From Acidobacteriota bacterium (GTDB taxonomy: Bacteria; Acidobacteriota; Aminicenantia; Aminicenantales; Saccharicenantaceae), in assembly GCA_028749115.1 (NCBI GenBank), contig JAQURD010000002.1:145402-209401 (forward strand): 64,000 nt of DNA, written 5' to 3'. Positions 176 to 57,203 of the stretch are shown here, one piece after another (the first letter of the stretch is position 1; the number at the start of each line of letters is the position of its first letter). The notes beneath the pieces were generated by a model. It was given only the letters and a program-made list of their open reading frames with translations, had not been told where the DNA came from and ran no database searches. A program made the position numbers and the translations under genes.

Positions 176-586
176 ATGGCTAAAAAGTACGGTATTTACA
201 AATGTCTGAAGTGCGGGAATATCGTTGAAGTCCTGCACGAAGGTCCGGGCACCCTGGTTTGTTGCGGCCAGGAGATGGCTTTGATGGAAGCCAGGACGGC
301 TGACACCACCCAGGAAAAACATGTACCATATATTGAAAAAGTGGCTGGCGGCTATCTGGTTAAGGTCGGCCAGATGGTAGATCATCCCATGGAAGAAAAG
401 CATTACATCGAATGGATCGAGCTTATAGCTGATGGGAAAATTTACCGCCAGGAACTCAAGCCAGGAGACAAGCCGGAGGCTTTCTTCCCGCTGGAAGCTG
501 CTCATGTCTGGGCTCGTGAATACTGCAATATTCACCTGTTGTGGGAAAATAAAAACGAGACAAACGAAAACCGACCTGGAAAATAG
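176..586 (+). CDS. dfx: desulfoferrodoxin (superoxide reductase, 2Fe class)
   Basis: N-terminal desulforedoxin-like CxxC...CC ([11 protein letters not shown]...LVCCGQEM) followed by a neelaredoxin domain; RBS GGGAGG upstream. Confidence 0.85.
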
Positions 587-42187: not shown

Positions 42188-44740
42188 TTAAAACTCTTGA
42201 TAAAAGCCTAACTTTTTTAAAAACTCGTCGAGCTTTCCTACTTCTTCATCCCTTGCAGCTCTTAGCTCAAGCAAAGATATTTTATATTTGTCCCACAGGT
42301 TTTCAAAAATCTTAATTATTCCTTTTTTCTCTGCGTTTAAATATCTATGGAGTTGATCAGCCAGAAGTTTGTAAAATTTTTCAAGAATCAAAGTTTCCGC
42401 TTCTTCATCTGTCAGCGAATTTCTTTTTTGATCAATCTTGCCTTCTTTTATCTTAATTAATTCTTTAGTGTCCTTATCTTGTTTATAAATACCTTCTAAT
42501 TCTTGGGTCTTTTGTTTAAGTTTCTTTTTCCAATCGTTTAAAGTCTTATTTTTGCTGCTTATCTTTTCGTGCAGTTCCCACAACTCATTTATCGTTTTCC
42601 TTGCTAAATCCGATATCGGATCGCCGTTGAACTTGGTTACTGAAGAAACTAAAGATTTGTTCCATTTTTGCTTTGACGGTACAAGAAGGATATCTTTTAT
42701 CTGCTCTTCCAAATAATCCATAACTCTATTAGCAGTTTTATCTCCTTGGCTCTCTTCATCCCAGTCATCTATCTCTTCTAAAAGTTCGCCTAGTTCCTCT
42801 TCAATTTTAGCTATCTTTGTTTCCAGGCCATCTATTTCTTCAGCTTCTTCTTTAAAATAATTTTGCTTGATCATGTCATCATCTATCAAGTTTTTGCTCC
42901 AACCGGCAGAGGTAATGGTTTTAAAGTCATATTTTAAATTTTCCCACCAGTTAGCAAACAAGCCAGAAACCTTGAACTCATCGAGTGCACCGAGCTGGAT
43001 CATTTTGTCCTTAAGAAGGTTCATGGCCATGTCTCTAAAGGCCCAAAGGTTATTGTTACCCTGACACTTTTCAATTTCAGGCTTAATTTCGTTCCAGAAT
43101 TCAGATAGGCAATTTAAATACTTGTTAAATGTGTCCTTTAGGCCTTCTGAAGACTCAACAACATCTCTTATCTTGTTCTTATCATCAATCTCAGACTTGA
43201 ATCGCCACCTACCTTGCGATACTGGTTCAAGAATAAGTTCGGGTGATATAGAAAGCTTTTTAAAGCTTTCAGCTTGACTATATACTTCTTCTTCCGGTAC
43301 CCAGCCCTCAATATGGGCTTTAACATTTTCTGGCTCAGGATCTGGGGAATTGTCTACATATCGTCGAATGTTAAGATTAAAATCGTTTTCTTCAATCTCC
43401 TTAATATCCACAAGTTTTGAATACTTTTCTATTTCTTTTTTCCCCTCGAAAACAGTTACAATCTTCTCAATATCTTCAGGTCTAAGAAAGTTCTGGTTTC
43501 TGCCTTCACCATACTCTCTATCAGCATTGATAAAAAGAATTTTATTTCTTAGATTCTCTGGTTTATTTTTGTTGATAACAATTATGCAAGCTGGAATGCC
43601 CACATTGTAGAAAAGCTTGGCTGGTAAACCAATAATAGCTTCGATGAGGTCATCCCTAACTATGCCCTCCCTTATGACCTTTTCGTGACCTCCCCTGAAA
43701 AGAACTCCATGAGGCATAACACTGGCCATGATTCCTTTTTCTTTCAAACTGGCTATCATGTGCTGAAGGAACATCAGATCCGCTTTTTTCCCTTTTTCAG
43801 GTGTAAATCCATATTTAAATCTGCTTTCATATTCCATATTGGCCCTGGAATAATTCAAAGAGAAAGGAGGGTTCGCCAGCACTCTGTCGAACTGTTTTAT
43901 ATATCCATTTTCTATAAAACGCGGATTGACCAGTGTATCTTCGTTCTCGATGTGGGCATCGGGAATGTCATGCAGAATCATATTCATCTTGCAAATTGAC
44001 CAGGTCACTGGATTTGATTCCTGCCCATATAATGCTATGTTCCTTGGATTTTGCCCTTGGCCTTCTACATATTGTCTAGATTCGATAAGAAAGCCGCCTG
44101 AACCTACCGTTGGGTCATATATGGTCATCCCTTCCTCTGGTTTAATCAGTCTAACCATTAATCTTTTCACCTGCGGGGGAGTGTAGAATTCGCCTCCCTT
44201 TTTTCCGGCAGAGTCAGCAAAATCCTTCAGTAGATATTCGTAAGCAGCTCCTAAGAGGTCAGGAAACTCAAAATCATCATTAGTAAGTCTATACTTATTA
44301 AAATGATGGATTAGGTCAATAAGCTGCTGGTCTTTGAGCTTGGTTCTTCCCTTTTTTACATTGAAATCTATATGCTTTAAAACTCCGTCGAGCTCTGGGT
44401 TGACCTCTTCGACTGCAGCGAGGGCTTTGTTTAGCTCGTTGCCGACATCCACCTTAAGGTTAAGTATTGTTTCCCATCTTGCACGTTGCGGCACAAAGAA
44501 TGCATCGCCATAAATATTTTGGTCTTCAATAATTTCTTCGAGCTCTTTGCCAGCATAGCCTTTTGACTCATATTCTTGTTTAAGTTCCTGTTGCTTTACA
44601 GTAAATACGTCTGAGACTCGCTTTAAGAATAACATGCCAAAGATGTATTCCTTATATTCGGAGGCATCCATCTTGCCCCTGAGAATGTCAGCTGCTTTAA
44701 ATAGATGTGTTTCTAACTGGCGGAGTGTCAGCTTAGGCAT
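42188..44740 (-). CDS. hsdM: type I restriction-modification DNA methyltransferase subunit (N6-adenine) with long C-terminal coiled-coil extension
   Basis: HsdM N-terminal domain; SAM-binding [10 protein letters not shown]; catalytic NPPF ([10 protein letters not shown]); 850 aa including roughly 330 extra K/E-rich residues. Confidence 0.9.
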
Positions 44741-45708: not shown

Positions 45709-46935
45709 TTATTCAAGTATTTTTTTTAAGATCTCAAAAACTTGATTTTCTCTGTTCCTGGTTACCCTTATAGAAACATCCTGGCTGTGACAAACCTTTC
45801 CGGGCCCAATAATTCTTGCACTTATATATCCGCACCCCTCAACAGGCACTAGAAGACGGAAGCGAAATTTTGAAGAACTGCTCCCTTCTAACATTCTCTT
45901 TTCAAAAAACACTTCTAGGACATCGGGACATCGGCTGAATTCTCTTATAACCTGTCTCATTTCAGGCGGGAGATCATTAATGTTTTCGATCCGCCTCTCA
46001 AATATCGTATTGTCCCCCTTTGAAGTGATTCTTATATCCCTGGGATAATCTAGAAGAACTATTTCCTGTGATTTAATTAAAGGTTCTTTTTGGAATTCCT
46101 GAGACCTTTTATTCTCGCTCAGCTCATTTTTTTTCTTTTTTGGCTCATCCTTAGGATACCCCGCAGGCGGGAAAGGCTTATTAGTAAGTAATACCTTATC
46201 ACGCTCTAAAAAAAACACCTTTTCTGGCTCTATAAGTCTAATTTTTGACTCTTCATTTCCAAGAATATGATCACGGGCCAGTTCACCCAGAGTAGAGAGT
46301 ATTGTGGCTCCTGCATACTGTTCTCCGAACACATGAAGCACCTCAACCTTAGAAGAAATGCGATCCCAGTTTAGAAGGCTGCGGTAGGCTTCCTGGCCGG
46401 TTAAATCAAATAACCTGACAATCTCAAATTGTCCTATATAAGAAAGCATTATTGACGTTAAGAACTCATCTTTAGCCCATATCGCCGTTATATCAGGATG
46501 ATCTTCAATATCACAACTATAAACCTGAATAAGCTCTTCAGGTAAAAGCATTCCATAAAGTGCTGAAATTATCAGAATATGGTGTGGTGCCTCTTCAAGA
46601 ATCCGATCATTTTTCTCCTTGACCGCGGTATAAAATCTTCCAGCATAACGGCTGGCCGCAGACATATAAATTCCGGGCTTTGCTGATCTGCCTCCAAAAT
46701 CCGGGCCTGGAAAAAGTCTCGCATTGAATTGCATCTCCTTGAGATTCAGACCATCCCGACTCAAGGAACCGCTTTTAATAATCTCGAGAACTCTCAATCT
46801 TCTTCTTATGAGTTCACCAGCTATATTAAATGAGATGACCTTCGATATCGAAGGCGCTTCCTTATCATAATCATATTCCCCTTGAACTTTCTGATTTGAA
46901 CAAACCGTGACAATGAGTATATGGCTTTTATTCAT
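45709..46935 (-). CDS. YaaA/DUF328-like domain protein with about 200-aa C-terminal extension
   Basis: N-terminal 170 aa aligns with E. coli YaaA signature blocks: ILIVTVCSNQK ~ LILISPAKT; YAGRFYTAV ~ FKGDVYTGL; HILIISALYGMLLPEELIQVYSCDIE ~ [25 protein letters not shown]. Confidence 0.5.
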   Translation of the reverse strand: MNKSHILIVTVCSNQKVQGEYDYDKEAPSISKVISFNIAGELIRRRLRVLEIIKSGSLSRDGLNLKEMQFNARLFPGPDFGGRSAKPGIYMSAASRYAGRFYTAVKEKNDRILEEAPHHILIISALYGMLLPEELIQVYSCDIEDHPDITAIWAKDEFLTSIMLSYIGQFEIVRLFDLTGQEAYRSLLNWDRISSKVEVLHVFGEQYAGATILSTLGELARDHILGNEESKIRLIEPEKVFFLERDKVLLTNKPFPPAGYPKDEPKKKKNELSENKRSQEFQKEPLIKSQEIVLLDYPRDIRITSKGDNTIFERRIENINDLPPEMRQVIREFSRCPDVLEVFFEKRMLEGSSSSKFRFRLLVPVEGCGYISARIIGPGKVCHSQDVSIRVTRNRENQVFEILKKILE

Positions 46936-48611: not shown

Positions 48612-51600
48612 TCAAGTTGGATCGTCATCATCTATGTTTGAACACTTTTGAATTTTTTCAATAACAGAGGTTATCAAAGAATTAATATAGCTTTTTATTG
48701 TCCCTGGCGGACATTTATCATACATCCTTTCTAATGATTCTTTTTTATGTGCCAGGTCAGATGAAATTTGCCAAGTTGCAGATGGACTACCAAAGAAAAC
48801 TTGTTGAGCAAGAACATGTTTTATCTCATCGAAGAGGCCAACTTTTTCAGTAGCTATTAAATATTCTAAGTATAAATCAGTTGTACCATTGCTAAAAGGC
48901 ACGCTACATAATGCATTGGCAGCAATTCTTAAATTCCCAACATCTCCTGCTTCTACTTTCTCGCTGATATAGCCCATTAGATAATCTCTTTGTTCATTAT
49001 CAGTGGTGCAAAGATTACTAATTAATAATTCATTTGATAAAGGCGACAAAAGACCTTCGTTGGACCAAGTATTAACTTTTTCCATCAGTTTCACAAAATC
49101 TTCATATGTTCTAATCAGCCCTTTTACCGAACCGAACCCATCAAAGGGCATCGCATCATAGTCTAAAATTTTACCTCTCTTATAATATTCACTTTGCTTT
49201 TTAATGCGATAGTCAACCAGACTAATGAATTTATCTAAATCACTGTTAATCGCGAATCCTAAGAGGTTATCAGTATGGTGATCTATCTTGGGAATTTCTC
49301 TTATTATCTCAACAAGCCTTTTTCGTATCTTTTCCAAATCCTCGTCTCGCAGGTTCCAATTCTTTGCTTCTTGTATCAAAAAATCGCAAGCCTCTAAGAC
49401 TGGATGGCCTACTTCTCCTTGTAAGGATTGTTCAAGAATATAGACTATTTGATCTCTTTCTTTCTGCGGCCTATCTTTAAAAATCTGATAAGAACTGTAG
49501 AGAATACGGCTCCTGACATAATCGTCGGCCCGTTCAATAATTCTCAAAAGCCACGGCATAAATTTTGACTCAGAAACATTATGGCTAATTATAAGGTCCA
49601 ATAAGATACCAACCATTTGTGGCCGCAGGTTTTCCAAATCAGCAAGTATAGATTCAGCATATTTATCAATATATCTTTTGTCCTTATCGGAAGCAGCTTG
49701 GCAAATACCAGGATGAAATCTTTCTGGAATCTTCTCCATAAGTTTTCTGTTAGTTGCTATTTGAATAAATGCTTTTTCGTTAAATTTCGACCATGTCTCA
49801 ATCAATGGGACAGGCCCCAGCCGCGCAATTCCGTTTATTTCATTTTCTAATCTATTTAGATATCCAATTATTTCATCCTGTTGTTTGTTCTTATCAGACA
49901 ACTTTTTTACTAACACATCAAAATCTCTCTGTTGAAATGCGATGCATCGATAATAATTATCAATAAGCCATGTCCTCCTGTCTTTCCCTGGGGTCTCCTC
50001 TTCTAGTTTCTTAAAATCAGAAATAATTAGGTCGTCCACAACAAAGTATCTAAATATTAGATAATCTATTGACCTAGGAAATGCTCTTAGTATGTCTGCT
50101 GCCTTAGCACTTAAATTTGGGTGATCTTCGTTATCTTCCCAATATCTGATCAGAACATCTTCAACTGCACTAAGAAGTTGATGAGAGTCAGTAAAGTTTA
50201 TTAGTTTTTCTAACCATGTAAAGGCTTTTTCGATATCTCGAAGGATTCTATCCCAGAAGTCATCATTCTTGGAAGCCGGACGATATCCAATATAATCGAT
50301 TATTTCTATACCCATCTTTTTAATCTTGTCATTTTGATGGAATAAAAAACATTTAAGCACTTCCATTGCCTTATCTCTATATTGATCTATAGATTTTTTG
50401 AAAGAACCACTATACCGAAGGACTTTTCTCCCAATAATCAGCTGATATTCATAGCCTTCTTGGTACTCATGAGAACCTGATAGGGCTTCTTTTACGCCTT
50501 CGCTAGCTAATTCCGCTTCAAGTTCGGTACAGCTCGCCTTGTTTACCCAGCTTAAAAGTTCATTTAAAGAGTTTGTTGCGGATGTTATATTTTTTTCTAT
50601 AGGAGAGACGATATTTCTTATAAGCGTCGTCGGTTTGTAATTATGACATGTCCCTTTGAGACCTTTTTGAGCAATATAAAGAATCAACTCAAGAGTCACT
50701 TTTTCATATCCGGGAATATGAAGAATGCTATAGATAATCGGTCCATAAGAATCTTGATTAAGTCGATAGCCTTCTTCGGTGCTTGATGAATCTATATAGG
50801 CATAAGTCAAATTAATTGTCTGATCTGGAGCTAAAAAAGCCACATGGCCAGCGAGCTCAAGTCGCTTTGCTTTTTCCCAGTCATTAGTCTGCGATACCTC
50901 ATCAATCCATTTTTTTAACAGGTCCTTGACAGCTTCATTGACCAGAGTTGTTTCTTTGTATAGGGATGCATCTGCTAAATTAGCCATTAGCTGGTCAGGA
51001 CATATAGACAACCAGTTGTCCAACATAGTATGAGCTATATTTTTTTCGCTCTTTTTATCCAGCTCAATAGATAAATAAATGTCACCTTTCATATCAGGAT
51101 TGAATCTTAAAGAAGAACCGGTTTTGCGAAGGATTTTTGACTCGACGAGCCGATCCATGGCTTCATTTATTAAATCAGTTTTCAGATCCAATACAGATGC
51201 TAATTGTTCGATTATTTTATTAGCTTGTTTCTCTTTTGGAAAGGGTAAAATTGCTGATAGCTCTCTTAAGAGATTTTTTGTATCCCGTTCATTCAATAGC
51301 CCCTGGAGAGCGTTTTCGGCCTCACGATCAAGTTCATCTTTAATGCGTGTTTTTATCTCTCTTCCATCGGTTGCTCCATCTTTTATATACTTACCCGTAA
51401 CTACAATTAAGAATAGATTCCCGTTTAATTGTTTAACAATTCTTTCCGGATGATTAATTGTTTTTGAACCTGACGCAATATTCAAGATTTCTATCAAAAT
51501 CTTTTCTGGCAGTTTAGGTAATTCAAAAACCTCATAATTATAAATACTCTGCTTACAAGCTAACTCTTCTACAATTTTCAATCCTGAACTCCGGCAAGAC

Positions 51601-52457
51601 AAAATTATCTTCAACAACCCTGGACAAAAAGTCTTCGTGTGAGCAATTAGTTTTCGTGCTTCATCCTGATATCTATCTGCATCATCCAGAAATACTACTG
51701 TATTTTTCTCGTGATTCAATTCATTAATGGCATTATTGAGATCACTTATTCCCGGCCTACAAAACCAAGCTTGCATATCAGGCTTGATTTTGATCACATT
51801 TTTCCCAGCGTCGATGATAAAATGAGTTTTTCCATATCCACCACAAGCATGAACAATGAATATTTTGCTTCTGGAGTCTTGTAAAAACTTCTCGAAGGTC
51901 TCTAACGAATCTTCTCTTCCTAAGAAATTACTGAGAATGTGCTCTGACTGCGCTTTAGCAAACTTTTGGGGCGGAACAAACATCGGCTCCTGAGTATCGC
52001 CGAAGTAATTGTACCTAAGCCATGGGTACTGGACGATTCTGCTCTCAAGATTTGCACGCGGCCAAATAAATAATTTTTTTACAAACCCTTGACCCTGATT
52101 CAGCCTCTCTAGTTTACCAACATGATCATTTATACCTACTCTAAGATCGGCATTAGTCGCAATTAAAAGATAGTCCACCCGATTTTTCTTAGCCTTTTTC
52201 AATTCGTCTTTTACCTCTTGACGCAATTGCTTATAAGCTTGATTAAGATTATGCTTTGTCCATTTCGACTGAAAATTCCAGACACCGCAATATTCCATAT
52301 ATGGACCGTCATAGCGACCATCCCACCCGCCATCGGCGGCTATTGCTGGGCTACTTGAAAGGTAACCAGGGTTGTTTATCTCCAGCGCAAATAAGTCATT
52401 CACCAAACGCTGGAAATCCCTATCATTATTAATTTTCCCCCAGTCCAGTTCTTTCAT
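48612..52457 (-). CDS. Avs-like antiviral STAND NTPase: N-terminal Mrr-like restriction-endonuclease domain + P-loop NTPase + about 950-aa helical repeat sensor
   Basis: aa 15-100 DFQRLVNDLF ... ADGGWDGRYD ... NFQSKW ... VDYLLIATNADL (Mrr_cat-like D ... QxK); Walker A IFIVHACGGYGKTHF (aa about 200), Walker B VVFLDDADR; rest is predicted alpha-helical repeats. Confidence 0.65.
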   Translation of the reverse strand: MKELDWGKINNDRDFQRLVNDLFALEINNPGYLSSSPAIAADGGWDGRYDGPYMEYCGVWNFQSKWTKHNLNQAYKQLRQEVKDELKKAKKNRVDYLLIATNADLRVGINDHVGKLERLNQGQGFVKKLFIWPRANLESRIVQYPWLRYNYFGDTQEPMFVPPQKFAKAQSEHILSNFLGREDSLETFEKFLQDSRSKIFIVHACGGYGKTHFIIDAGKNVIKIKPDMQAWFCRPGISDLNNAINELNHEKNTVVFLDDADRYQDEARKLIAHTKTFCPGLLKIILSCRSSGLKIVEELACKQSIYNYEVFELPKLPEKILIEILNIASGSKTINHPERIVKQLNGNLFLIVVTGKYIKDGATDGREIKTRIKDELDREAENALQGLLNERDTKNLLRELSAILPFPKEKQANKIIEQLASVLDLKTDLINEAMDRLVESKILRKTGSSLRFNPDMKGDIYLSIELDKKSEKNIAHTMLDNWLSICPDQLMANLADASLYKETTLVNEAVKDLLKKWIDEVSQTNDWEKAKRLELAGHVAFLAPDQTINLTYAYIDSSSTEEGYRLNQDSYGPIIYSILHIPGYEKVTLELILYIAQKGLKGTCHNYKPTTLIRNIVSPIEKNITSATNSLNELLSWVNKASCTELEAELASEGVKEALSGSHEYQEGYEYQLIIGRKVLRYSGSFKKSIDQYRDKAMEVLKCFLFHQNDKIKKMGIEIIDYIGYRPASKNDDFWDRILRDIEKAFTWLEKLINFTDSHQLLSAVEDVLIRYWEDNEDHPNLSAKAADILRAFPRSIDYLIFRYFVVDDLIISDFKKLEEETPGKDRRTWLIDNYYRCIAFQQRDFDVLVKKLSDKNKQQDEIIGYLNRLENEINGIARLGPVPLIETWSKFNEKAFIQIATNRKLMEKIPERFHPGICQAASDKDKRYIDKYAESILADLENLRPQMVGILLDLIISHNVSESKFMPWLLRIIERADDYVRSRILYSSYQIFKDRPQKERDQIVYILEQSLQGEVGHPVLEACDFLIQEAKNWNLRDEDLEKIRKRLVEIIREIPKIDHHTDNLLGFAINSDLDKFISLVDYRIKKQSEYYKRGKILDYDAMPFDGFGSVKGLIRTYEDFVKLMEKVNTWSNEGLLSPLSNELLISNLCTTDNEQRDYLMGYISEKVEAGDVGNLRIAANALCSVPFSNGTTDLYLEYLIATEKVGLFDEIKHVLAQQVFFGSPSATWQISSDLAHKKESLERMYDKCPPGTIKSYINSLITSVIEKIQKCSNIDDDDPT

Positions 52458-55027: not shown

Positions 55028-55294
55028 CTATTTAGCCAGCGTTATCTGCCTGCTTTTTTTCTTTTTTCTGGCCCATTCGATGGCTTCCTCTACATCTTGC
55101 TCGCTTAGACCAAGTTCGGCCATTTTCTTCCTCACTTTTTCTAAGGAACCTTCACCAACAGGGGTCATCTTCACTGGCTCAAGAATTATCTTGCCGTCTT
55201 CGACATGAACTTCAAAATATTCGACATCCTCCAGATTCTCCATTATTTTTTTGGGCAAAGTGATTTGGTTTTTATAGGTCCTTTTGCAAAGCAT
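55028..55294 (-). CDS. AbrB/MazE/SpoVT-family (swapped-hairpin) DNA-binding protein, antitoxin-like
   Basis: YKNQITLPKKIMENL ... GKIILEPV matches the SpoVT-AbrB looped-hinge fold; acidic/basic C-terminal tail. Confidence 0.5.
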   Translation of the reverse strand: MLCKRTYKNQITLPKKIMENLEDVEYFEVHVEDGKIILEPVKMTPVGEGSLEKVRKKMAELGLSEQDVEEAIEWARKKKKSRQITLAK

Positions 55295-55632: not shown

Positions 55633-56277
55633 TTATTTTTGCAAAGTGTCATATAAACTTACTATTTTTTGCTCTAAGAGTTTTATTTCATTTTCTAAGC
55701 CATCTGGTACTTCTAAATACTTTTTTAAGGTTTCCAATCCAACCAGAGCTGCATATTTTATAAACCCTGACAATAGCAAAAGATTAGTTTTAACGACACT
55801 ATCATCTACTATTGGCTCGATATGCCATCTGCCAGTTTCCATATTAACTAGATGGCCTATTGAATCCCAAGAAACCTTCATGTGTGATGCATATTCGTTT
55901 AAATGCTCTCGAAGTTCTTGGAATTTTCCGTCTATTATTTTTGCTATTTCCCCTGCAGAAGGCAATTTGTCATCTAAAAATAGTTGTATCCTCTTTTCGT
56001 CCTCGGTTAAGAATGTTAATGCTTCCAAATACTCTATTGCCAGTCGGAGCAAAGCACCAGATTCTTGTCCTAACCCTTCCCATATCAAAATATATATGGC
56101 TTTAAATAGATATTTACATTTGACAAGTATCAATCCGCATACCCTTACGAATGTGCTGTCATTAACATGCTTGTTAAAAACTCGAATTTCCTTATCTAAG
56201 ATATCAAAGCCACGGGTAACAATTTCTTTATATTGTTCTATCTGCTTTTGAAAATCTTCGTCATTTACTTGAAACAT
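55633..56277 (-). CDS. hypothetical protein (214 aa, helical)
   Basis: Clean AT-rich ORF; no motif. Confidence 0.4.
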   Translation of the reverse strand: MFQVNDEDFQKQIEQYKEIVTRGFDILDKEIRVFNKHVNDSTFVRVCGLILVKCKYLFKAIYILIWEGLGQESGALLRLAIEYLEALTFLTEDEKRIQLFLDDKLPSAGEIAKIIDGKFQELREHLNEYASHMKVSWDSIGHLVNMETGRWHIEPIVDDSVVKTNLLLLSGFIKYAALVGLETLKKYLEVPDGLENEIKLLEQKIVSLYDTLQK

Positions 56278-56349: not shown

Positions 56350-56622
56350 CTACCCTTCCCCTGATATTCTTTTATCATGCAAAATTGCCCAGATATAAGA
56401 AGGCCCGCGGACCTTATTGTTTATAGCTCCAGGCCCATCAACGGGCATAAGATCATAGGCAGTCGCGAAATCGCTTTTTGATAAATTATAATTCGTCCTT
56501 GACACTTTAATACTGGAACCATGTACCCAATAGCAAAACTGCTCTCCGTTTTTCGTATAGAATGTTTCACCCTGATGGCCCAGTACTTTTTGCCAAATAG
56601 CCTCAAAATTTGATTGGCTCAT
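56350..56622 (-). CDS. hypothetical protein (90 aa), second gene of a coupled pair
   Basis: Start overlaps the upstream ORF stop (ATGA). Confidence 0.4.
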   Translation of the reverse strand: MSQSNFEAIWQKVLGHQGETFYTKNGEQFCYWVHGSSIKVSRTNYNLSKSDFATAYDLMPVDGPGAINNKVRGPSYIWAILHDKRISGEG

Positions 56623-57203
56623 ACCTGATCTCCTATTTTATGTTTTGGTTTAGCCAGGTAAATCCTGGCCTCACTTTTGCTATTAAACCTGACAGCATAA
56701 GGCTCTGCGATAACCTCAGCAACATTTACAATACGATTCATATGGATACTATTCCATAAATCGTCTTTTGTCTTGTCTACAGGCATTGGGTAAACGATAA
56801 ACATCACCAGTTGCTCGCAATCCTGGTTGGGACATTTTTTGAGTTTTTTTACATCATCAATCACATGTTGAACCTGATTTGTTATAGGTTTTCCAGGCAG
56901 ATTATAGTTCGTTACGATAACTTCCAGGCCGCACCATATCTCTTTTTCATTTGTTTTAAACCAGATGTCGCAAAAGCCTGCTTTCGGCCCATATACTTCC
57001 TCGAGATTTGCATCGACAACGGTCCCGATTTTCTTACACTCATTAAGATACCAGATAAACTCACCCTGTAACCACTTCTCACAGCTGGCTTGCCTATTTA
57101 AATATGGTATAAAGTAATCTTTTTGTTTGGAGAGAAACTCAAAGAACCCCGAAAATATTTCTATACCTACCCCCTCCCCTGAACAGGCACTGACCGCATC
57201 AGC
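56619..57203 (-). pseudogene. roughly 195-codon open frame lacking any ATG/GTG/TTG in its first 113 codons (possible frameshifted gene)
   Basis: Continuous protein-like frame ADAVSACSGEGVGIEIFSGFFEFLSKQKDYFIPYLNRQ ... QVQHVIDDVKKLKKCPNQDCEQLVMF ... ; the track calls only the last 81 codons from a GTG at 56864. Confidence 0.4.

Follow-up and report, generated by a model that had tools for sequence, protein, structure and literature searches.

A probable start-codon-loss pseudogene of a putative PD-(D/E)xK nuclease gene in a toxin-antitoxin and defence island of an Acidobacteriota bacterium

How can a reading frame that looks like a genuine gene run for more than a hundred codons without a start codon? 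This question is raised by a stretch of 64,000 nucleotides from an Acidobacteriota bacterium (GenBank assembly GCA_028749115.1, contig JAQURD010000002.1, positions 145,402 to 209,401), which is referred to here as the window. On its minus strand, the frame 57203..56619 is open for 194 sense codons and a stop codon, with further stops just upstream. Its first ATG, GTG or TTG is the GTG at 56864, which opens an open reading frame (ORF) of 81 aa and leaves 113 codons without a canonical start. The TGA of this frame, called gene 1 here (56621-56619), overlaps in the sequence ATGA with the ATG (56622-56620) of a conserved gene for a 90-aa protein, gene 2. A preliminary description of the locus had reported these features, all of which are borne out by translation, the ORF listing and the sequence itself, and had proposed that a frameshift in a G-run separates gene 1 from an upstream ATG; a pseudogene, a sequencing error, a slippage-controlled switch and a toxin or defence pair were offered as possible explanations. 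The analysis favours the pseudogene: gene 1 is very probably a recent start-codon-loss pseudogene of a probable PD-(D/E)xK nuclease gene, located in an island of toxin-antitoxin (TA) and defence genes.

The lost start codon of gene 1

The frame is a genuine gene and not a chance opening. When its conceptual 194-aa translation was used as a query, 16 homologs were revealed (176-188 aa; E 1e-115 to 7e-35), which cover 83-93% of it, and the gene 1 protein is 95, 93 and 86% identical to P0001, P0002 and P0003, respectively (proteins and loci are designated by P and L numbers). The position of the start was deduced from 18 related loci with 85-95% DNA identity, which stem from independent ENA, JGI, NCBI and Logan assemblies. 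Intact orthologs, which the preliminary description had suggested looking for, are present in all of them: 18/18 loci start a protein of 177-182 aa at a conserved GTG, with GGAGG or GGAAGG 6-7 nt upstream, and read GTG ATA GAR ATA, i.e., (A/T)GTGATAGA(A/G)ATA. The window reads GGT-ATAGAA where the relatives have GGTGATAGAA; it alone has AGGT-ATAGAAATA, compared to AGGTGATAGA(A/G)ATA or ATGTGATAGAAATA in 18/18 loci. At the protein level, the closest homologs begin with M/V-IEIFSGFFEF, which corresponds to the window codon GGT, located just before ATA GAA ATA TTT, and distant homologs have their N-termini no more than about 10 residues from the GTG position, with no upstream extension. One substitution and one deletion at the GTG suffice to convert the sequence of the relatives into that of the window, whereas a G added to the G-rich tract leaves four mismatches. 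As far as the assembled sequences tell, the lesion is thus shown to be the deletion of one base within the start codon GTG, between 57165 and 57164, rather than a frameshift in the G-run. The missing G is flanked by T and A and lies outside any homopolymer.

GTG in 18/18 loci therefore stands against GT- in the window, and the next ATG, GTG or TTG after the lost position lies 101 codons downstream. In the intact orthologs, too, the ~100 codons that follow the start (window positions 57164-56865) are free of Met, GTG and TTG codons. Since no alternative start codon is available over this distance, the loss of a single start leaves an unusually long start-less frame.

The G-rich tract GGGGAGGGGG is located at 57179-57170 on the minus strand, one base off the previously reported 57171-57180. 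It consists of four and five G interrupted by an A (GGGG-A-GGGGG) and varies among the relatives by substitution (GGAGGGGGG, GGAAGGG, GGAGGGG). Its core GGAGG, 6 nt from the GTG, marks it as the Shine-Dalgarno sequence of gene 1 and not as a slippage tract. In the intact relatives, the ribosome would bind to GGAGG and start at the GTG 6 nt downstream, and the ATGA overlap would allow the nuclease gene and its 90-aa partner to be translated as a pair. In the window genome, in which one base of the GTG appears to be deleted (GGTGATA to GGTATA), no canonical start would be available for 113 codons, and at most trace initiation would be expected at the adjacent ATA, 8 nt from GGAGG. Gene 2 is probably still made: its protein sequence is unchanged, and it is preceded by a ribosome-binding site of its own, GGAGA, so that coupling would not be required.

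A second lesion was found when the codon changes of the window copy were polarised against four relatives. The window-specific changes in gene 1 are of three kinds: several are clustered in the last 12 codons, two are synonymous, and a single one replaces a residue in the core of the protein, Glu80 to Gly (GAA to GGC), which needs two nucleotide changes. Position 80 is Glu in 16/16 close homologs and in 77/86 members of the wider family, and Gly in the window copy alone. It belongs to the ExK motif described below, and any gene 1 product would hence also be devoid of the putative metal-binding Glu. The presence of the start deletion and the loss of the conserved Glu80 in one and the same copy favours genuine inactivation over a consensus error. 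Elsewhere, gene 1 is under purifying selection (omega 0.11-0.20).

Several observations weigh against a real loss of gene 1. The deletion allele is carried by one assembly only, and when JGI metagenome contigs were scanned for exact patterns of either start-region allele, one already-known contig was returned and no second copy of the deletion. Once E80G and the clustered changes of the last 12 codons are set aside, non-synonymous changes are not in excess in the window copy; the inactivation must therefore be very recent, or it is not real. In the latter case, the 182-aa gene of the organism would be intact and start with GTG (GGTGATAG instead of the assembled GGTATAG), and the absence of the G would be a consensus error of the metagenome-assembled genome (MAG), in which rare indels are possible; the observation that gene 1 is, apart from E80G, as conserved as its relatives would fit as well. 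However, the deletion is located outside a homopolymer, genes in the window are not generally fragmented (ORFs >= 80 aa, with a median length of 304 aa, cover 82.5% of it), and the two-nucleotide E80G change in the same copy is left unexplained by a single indel error. On the strength of this sequence context, the second lesion and the otherwise intact assembly, we infer that the deletion is biological, and an assembly artefact is considered unlikely. It is also rather improbable that gene 1 has been attenuated instead of silenced, with a low level of a weakened E80G protein translated from the near-cognate ATA (57164-57162). Such a protein might, for instance, be what is left of a toxic nuclease and be tolerated, or it might bind to the 90-aa protein without a catalytic role. 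The Shine-Dalgarno sequence is intact, its distance of 8 nt to the ATA is workable, the downstream frame is fully open and otherwise conserved, and AUA was shown to initiate at 1-2% of the AUG level in Escherichia coli reporters, compared to 10-100% for GUG (bioRxiv 10.1101/063800). The relatives, however, use GTG only, and an open frame is expected anyway soon after inactivation.

It had further been suggested that a change in G-run length, or a -1 ribosomal slip, joins the ATG at 57199 to the main frame, thereby placing a protein of ~193 aa under slippage or phase-variable control. One G added to the tract does join the two frames arithmetically (~193 codons), and in the three closest loci (L001-L003), but only there, the upstream ATG and the GTG share one frame. 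In nine other loci, however, the extension is broken by a TAG directly before the GTG, the T of which is shared by the window, in six loci the ATG is replaced by ATA, and distant homologs have no such extension; the ~193-aa fusion is therefore unsupported. Moreover, 0/18 related loci need a frameshift, as all of them have a single ORF from the GTG, and the tract is short, interrupted, variable by substitution and placed at the canonical distance for a Shine-Dalgarno sequence, with the frame-relevant indel located in the GTG and not in the tract. A switch of this kind is almost certainly not what the locus encodes. Hardly any more credible is a functional 81-aa product that starts at the GTG 56864 and comprises the C-terminal half of the protein. 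This is the sole canonical ORF in the frame, and it is the only part of gene 1 that is annotated by NCBI, on a 298-kb Acidobacteriota MAG contig; however, it is devoid of E30, E56, D67, E80/K82 and half of the central sheet, is not preceded by a good Shine-Dalgarno sequence and has no homolog so short except for another broken copy (L048). The orthologs do not give an 81-aa protein either: the 100 residues upstream are the best-conserved part of the protein. The annotated 81-aa product is a remnant of annotation, which would be without the whole catalytic core. Loss of the GTG in a gene of ~180 aa that is real, but unable to start normally in the window, accounts best for the locus, and the coordinates of its elements are listed in the table.

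Table. Elements of the gene pair and its surroundings in the window
Feature	Positions	Strand	Basis or remark
TTGACT inside the block TTGACTTTAATCTATTAG..TAACCTTAA	57288..57293	minus	Invariant columns in a DNA alignment of the window and 8 loci (85-95% identity)
Mini-ORF MRSVPVQGRG*, 10 codons, not a conserved start; ATG at 57199-57197 in the +1 frame, TAG at 57169-57167	57167..57199	minus	Sequence and comparison with related loci
GGGGAGGGGG purine tract, probable ribosome-binding site of gene 1; core GGAGG 57177-57173	57170..57179	minus	Kept in 18 related loci
'GT', apparent remnant of the ancestral GTG start	57165..57166	minus	Deletion of 1 nt between 57165 and 57164
Gene 1 body (codons 2-182 and TGA), start-less copy of a putative PD-(D/E)xK nuclease gene	56619..57164	minus	Homology, AF2 model, signature
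GAC, Asp67, sole invariant residue of the wider family and candidate metal-binding Asp	56967..56969	minus	Strand beta-2 (65-72 in the model)
GGC, Gly80, replacing the ExK-motif Glu (GAA in relatives)	56928..56930	minus	Window-specific change
81-aa ORF from the internal GTG, hypothetical protein PHU81_02285 (MDD8020000.1)	56619..56864	minus	NCBI annotation
GGAGA, putative Shine-Dalgarno sequence of gene 2, 6 nt before its ATG	56629..56633	minus	Read from the sequence
Gene 2, intact 90-aa protein PHU81_02280, motif VRGPSYIWAILHDKRI	56350..56622	minus	100% identical protein on 21+ contigs
214-aa DUF5677-like gene	55633..56277	minus	72 nt downstream of gene 2 in every related locus

Upstream of gene 1, the block around TTGACT, which is conserved in all related loci, may represent a -35 element or a promoter-operator region of the gene pair. 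A strict sigma-70 consensus scan revealed no convincing promoter directly upstream of gene 1 and did not call this block.

A putative nuclease family

No family model of Pfam, PADLOC, NCBIfam or PHROG matches the gene 1 or the gene 2 protein, and a plasmid search gave no match for either of them. An exhaustive profile search among 1.84 billion representatives revealed 293 relatives of gene 1 at E<=0.001, most of which are single-domain proteins of 170-190 aa. The AlphaFold2 (AF2) model of the 182-aa protein (predicted local distance difference test (pLDDT) 91.6, predicted template modelling score 0.87) consists of two N-terminal helices, which are followed by a helix (30-46), three strands (50-58, 65-72 and 76-85), a second helix (95-110) and a further strand (118-129). 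This predicted alpha-beta-beta-beta-alpha-beta order is that of the restriction-endonuclease-like (PD-(D/E)xK) core. Among 86 diverse members of the family, D67 is conserved in 86/86, E30 in 83/86, E56 in 78/86, E80 in 77/86 and K82 in 76/86, which yields the catalytic signature E...D...ExK, in which strand 2 carries the Asp and strand 3 the ExK; the window copy departs from it at E80. In the subclade to which the window copy belongs, E or Q (ELE/ELQ) is found at position 82 in place of the motif Lys. Such a replacement is known from BamHI/BglII-type active sites.

Further indications come from sub-threshold similarities. The Pfam SfsA restriction-endonuclease domain (PF03749) matches 11/86 members below the threshold and exactly over the core, and weak matches to Hjc (PF01870) and CoiA_nuc (PF06054) were obtained from single members each. 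Foldseek searches with the 182-aa model against the PDB or BFVD gave nothing at E<=0.001; the weak matches are enriched in EcoRV, R2 endonuclease, MGME1, SfsA, Cdn1, Cas4 and viral proteins designated 'PD-(D/E)XK', and they are also mixed with IF3-C/Alba folds. Sequence-profile searches of the PDB revealed only spurious or insignificant matches (a de novo TIM barrel repeat, YjcS, SfsA with E 0.65 and DUF1887 with E 0.63). What speaks against the PD-(D/E)xK assignment is that it is drawn from motif, topology and sub-threshold matches, with no significant fold or profile match among them. Nevertheless, the gene 1 product probably represents a new small PD-(D/E)xK family, and its members would be expected to act as nucleases.

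Gene 2, the gene pair and the island

The gene 2 protein is 100% identical on >20 contigs, with one or two synonymous differences at the DNA level, and gene 1 of these relatives differs at ~24 sites. Its family comprises 756 proteins at E<=0.001 from Bacteria and Archaea, which are mostly stand-alone proteins of ~90 aa. The AF2 model of gene 2 (pLDDT 92.1) has no fold match in a Foldseek search against the PDB, and no relatives of the 90-aa protein were found on viral contigs. The family is recurrently linked to DUF6884: fusions occur at either end (P0182, L038, L046), a DUF6884 gene is located immediately upstream in L033, and a protein with a kinase and a DUF6884 domain is encoded upstream of P0030; the other genes upstream of family members are unrelated. 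DUF6884 is a YaaA-like domain, which was proposed to bind damaged DNA or DNA lesions (PMC11701544). In L032, the 90-aa domain lies within a protein of 896 aa that also has a protein kinase domain. The window also encodes a 408-aa protein with a YaaA-like region (PF03883, E 8e-7; 45709-46935, minus strand), ~10 kb from gene 2.

The arrangement of gene 1 and gene 2 as two small same-strand genes with an ATGA overlap is that of a TA pair and is also found in L001-L004 and L011-L018. According to PMC10666635, 4-nt overlaps are typical of tightly coupled pairs, which often encode subunits of one complex. An indispensable antitoxin and a conserved pairing, however, are not observed. In L005-L010 (12 contigs from several JGI samples; e.g., L005:3516-3790), gene 2 carries a +1 T insertion in codon 9-10 (ATTTGG to ATTTTGG) and 14 amino-acid changes including one of the invariant R72 (R72H), with an omega of 0.32, whereas gene 1 is intact (177 aa), retains all signature residues and has an omega of 0.11-0.14, which is the opposite of what is found in the window. 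Rescue of this frameshifted gene 2 by a TTG in the new frame was considered and is unlikely, as the Shine-Dalgarno sequence would be ~22 nt from it, R72 is no longer present although otherwise invariant, and omega is elevated. In L048:1-471 (Logan SRR11235434), a different 1-nt deletion near codon 55 of gene 1 leads to a stop codon, an 81-aa remnant is called and gene 2 is intact; L048 is a single short contig, in which a read error is possible.

Beyond the related loci, 16 further genome loci with a gene 2 family member have no gene 1 relative within 3 kb (0/16), and the gene 2 family is missing in 3/4 distant gene 1 lineages. In the fourth of these, L049, a 91-aa gene 2 member (45% identity, E 2e-32; 203-478, minus strand) is located in divergent orientation 212 nt upstream of the gene 1 homolog P0034 (691-1260, plus strand; 36% identity). 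Within the loci compared, the two families are thus linked in two arrangements, a tandem overlap and the divergent one of L049, but not obligatorily. Neighbours of other distant gene 1 homologs (129 aa in L022 and 122 aa in L019) were tried as remote relatives of gene 2 and discarded with an hhalign probability of <1%.

A strict toxin-antitoxin reading was rejected, as either gene is found broken alone, gene 2 decays beside an intact gene 1 and most members of each family are unpaired. That gene 1 or gene 2 can be lost alone argues against an antidote that is indispensable and fits better with an accessory module that is cooperative but dispensable. It was tentatively considered that the 182-aa nuclease-like and the 90-aa DUF6884-associated proteins form an undescribed two-component module for DNA targeting in defence or repair, in which the small protein would recognise or regulate and the PD-(D/E)xK protein would cleave. 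This idea, including the role it assigns to the 90-aa partner, is doubtful; it is suggested because co-occurrence in two unrelated arrangements is hard to explain by chance adjacency. If it were true, the repeated independent knock-outs of either gene (window, L048, L005-L010) would be due to a fitness cost such as self-damage.

A toxin or defence setting, as proposed in the preliminary description, is supported by the neighbouring genes. Directly upstream of gene 1 are genes for a HicA-like protein (113 aa, 58815-58474), HicB (189 aa, 58502-57933) and a 160-aa protein (57924-57442), all on the minus strand. The sole PDB sequence match of the 160-aa protein is the SecB-like chaperone Rv1957 of Mycobacterium tuberculosis (E 0.007), and it matches PD-T4-9_C of PADLOC (2e-5). 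The arrangement of these three genes is kept in related loci, and they probably constitute a tripartite toxin-antitoxin-chaperone (TAC) system. Downstream of the gene pair, the DUF5677-like gene is possibly located in the same operon as gene 2. DUF5677 is enriched near recombinase-marked defence islands, but is not among the five ORFs with reported antiphage activity (PMC12632615, preprint). It is followed by an orphan gene for an 88-aa MazE/AbrB-type antitoxin (55028-55294, minus strand), which has no adjoining toxin gene. At the corresponding position, L011, L013-L015 and L018 have a gene for an antitoxin of 61-78 aa (with a weak Pfam MazE match in 4/5) and then a PIN-domain toxin gene (a 5' fragment where the contig ends), which is absent in the window and L001. 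By this comparison, the orphan MazE gene is another partly decayed TA module of the same island. Farther off on the minus strand are genes for an 850-aa HsdM methylase of a type I restriction-modification system (42188-44740) and for a protein of 1281 aa (48612-52457) in which a novel STAND NTPase domain is present.

The identity profile of the window between 59500 and 54000 against L001, L011, L012 and L005 is mosaic, with 99-100% identity to some relatives over gene 2 and the DUF5677 gene and a drop to 73-90% in flanking segments. The last 12 codons of gene 1 contain a cluster of 8 changes and are probably a recombination tract. Together, the mosaic identity and the clustered changes suggest recombination between island variants.

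Comparison with known systems

The inactivated copy in itself is ordinary; the two unannotated families, and the facultative linkage that recurs between them, are of modest interest. For annotation, the locus illustrates that a one-base deletion in a start codon can produce a start-less frame and the call of an 81-aa hypothetical protein, and that a Shine-Dalgarno tract can be mistaken for a slippery run. Two uncharacterised families are flagged, a rare PD-(D/E)xK-like one of ~180 aa and a much commoner one of 90 aa that is tied to DUF6884/YaaA-like domains, both of which are reasonable candidates for experimental screens for defence systems. As the window copy is very probably dead and would be uninformative in experiments, intact relatives such as P0002 and P0290 are preferable.

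Like toxin-first type II TA systems such as HicAB, HigBA and MqsRA, the locus consists of two small co-oriented genes with an ATGA overlap in a TA-rich island, and apparent loss-of-function alleles of the putative effector gene 1 exist (window, L048). In contrast to these systems, no antitoxin DNA-binding domain can be recognised in gene 2, most of its family is found apart from the gene 1 family, and its decay beside an intact gene 1 in L005-L010 is incompatible with an indispensable antidote. The poly-G contingency loci of Neisseria and Haemophilus also have a G-rich tract near the 5' end of a gene, here one of the defence type; however, the tract of the window is interrupted (4+5), is located upstream of the conserved start, where it reads as a Shine-Dalgarno sequence, and does not contain the indel.

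Like the usual DUF6884/YaaA-like (PF21818, PF03883) partners of the gene 2 family, the pairing with gene 1, a probable nuclease gene, would tie the 90-aa domain to nucleic-acid enzymes. The partner in the window is nonetheless a PD-(D/E)xK-like protein, and the YaaA-like gene is 10 kb off and not adjacent. The gene 1 model resembles the PD-(D/E)xK superfamily in its small alpha/beta domain with the order helix-strand-strand-strand-helix-strand, the first core helix of which bears an acidic residue, strand 2 the invariant Asp and strand 3 E-x-K. It differs in the additional invariant motifs TNY and PITN, for which no counterpart was identified, and in that it matches none of the described members significantly in sequence or fold. 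Finally, as in other start-loss pseudogenes and mis-annotated ORFs of MAGs, a conserved start is destroyed, an internal start is annotated and the remnant is listed as a hypothetical protein; in contrast to these, the indel lies inside the start codon itself and the downstream frame stays open, thereby giving the locus the look of a start-less gene.

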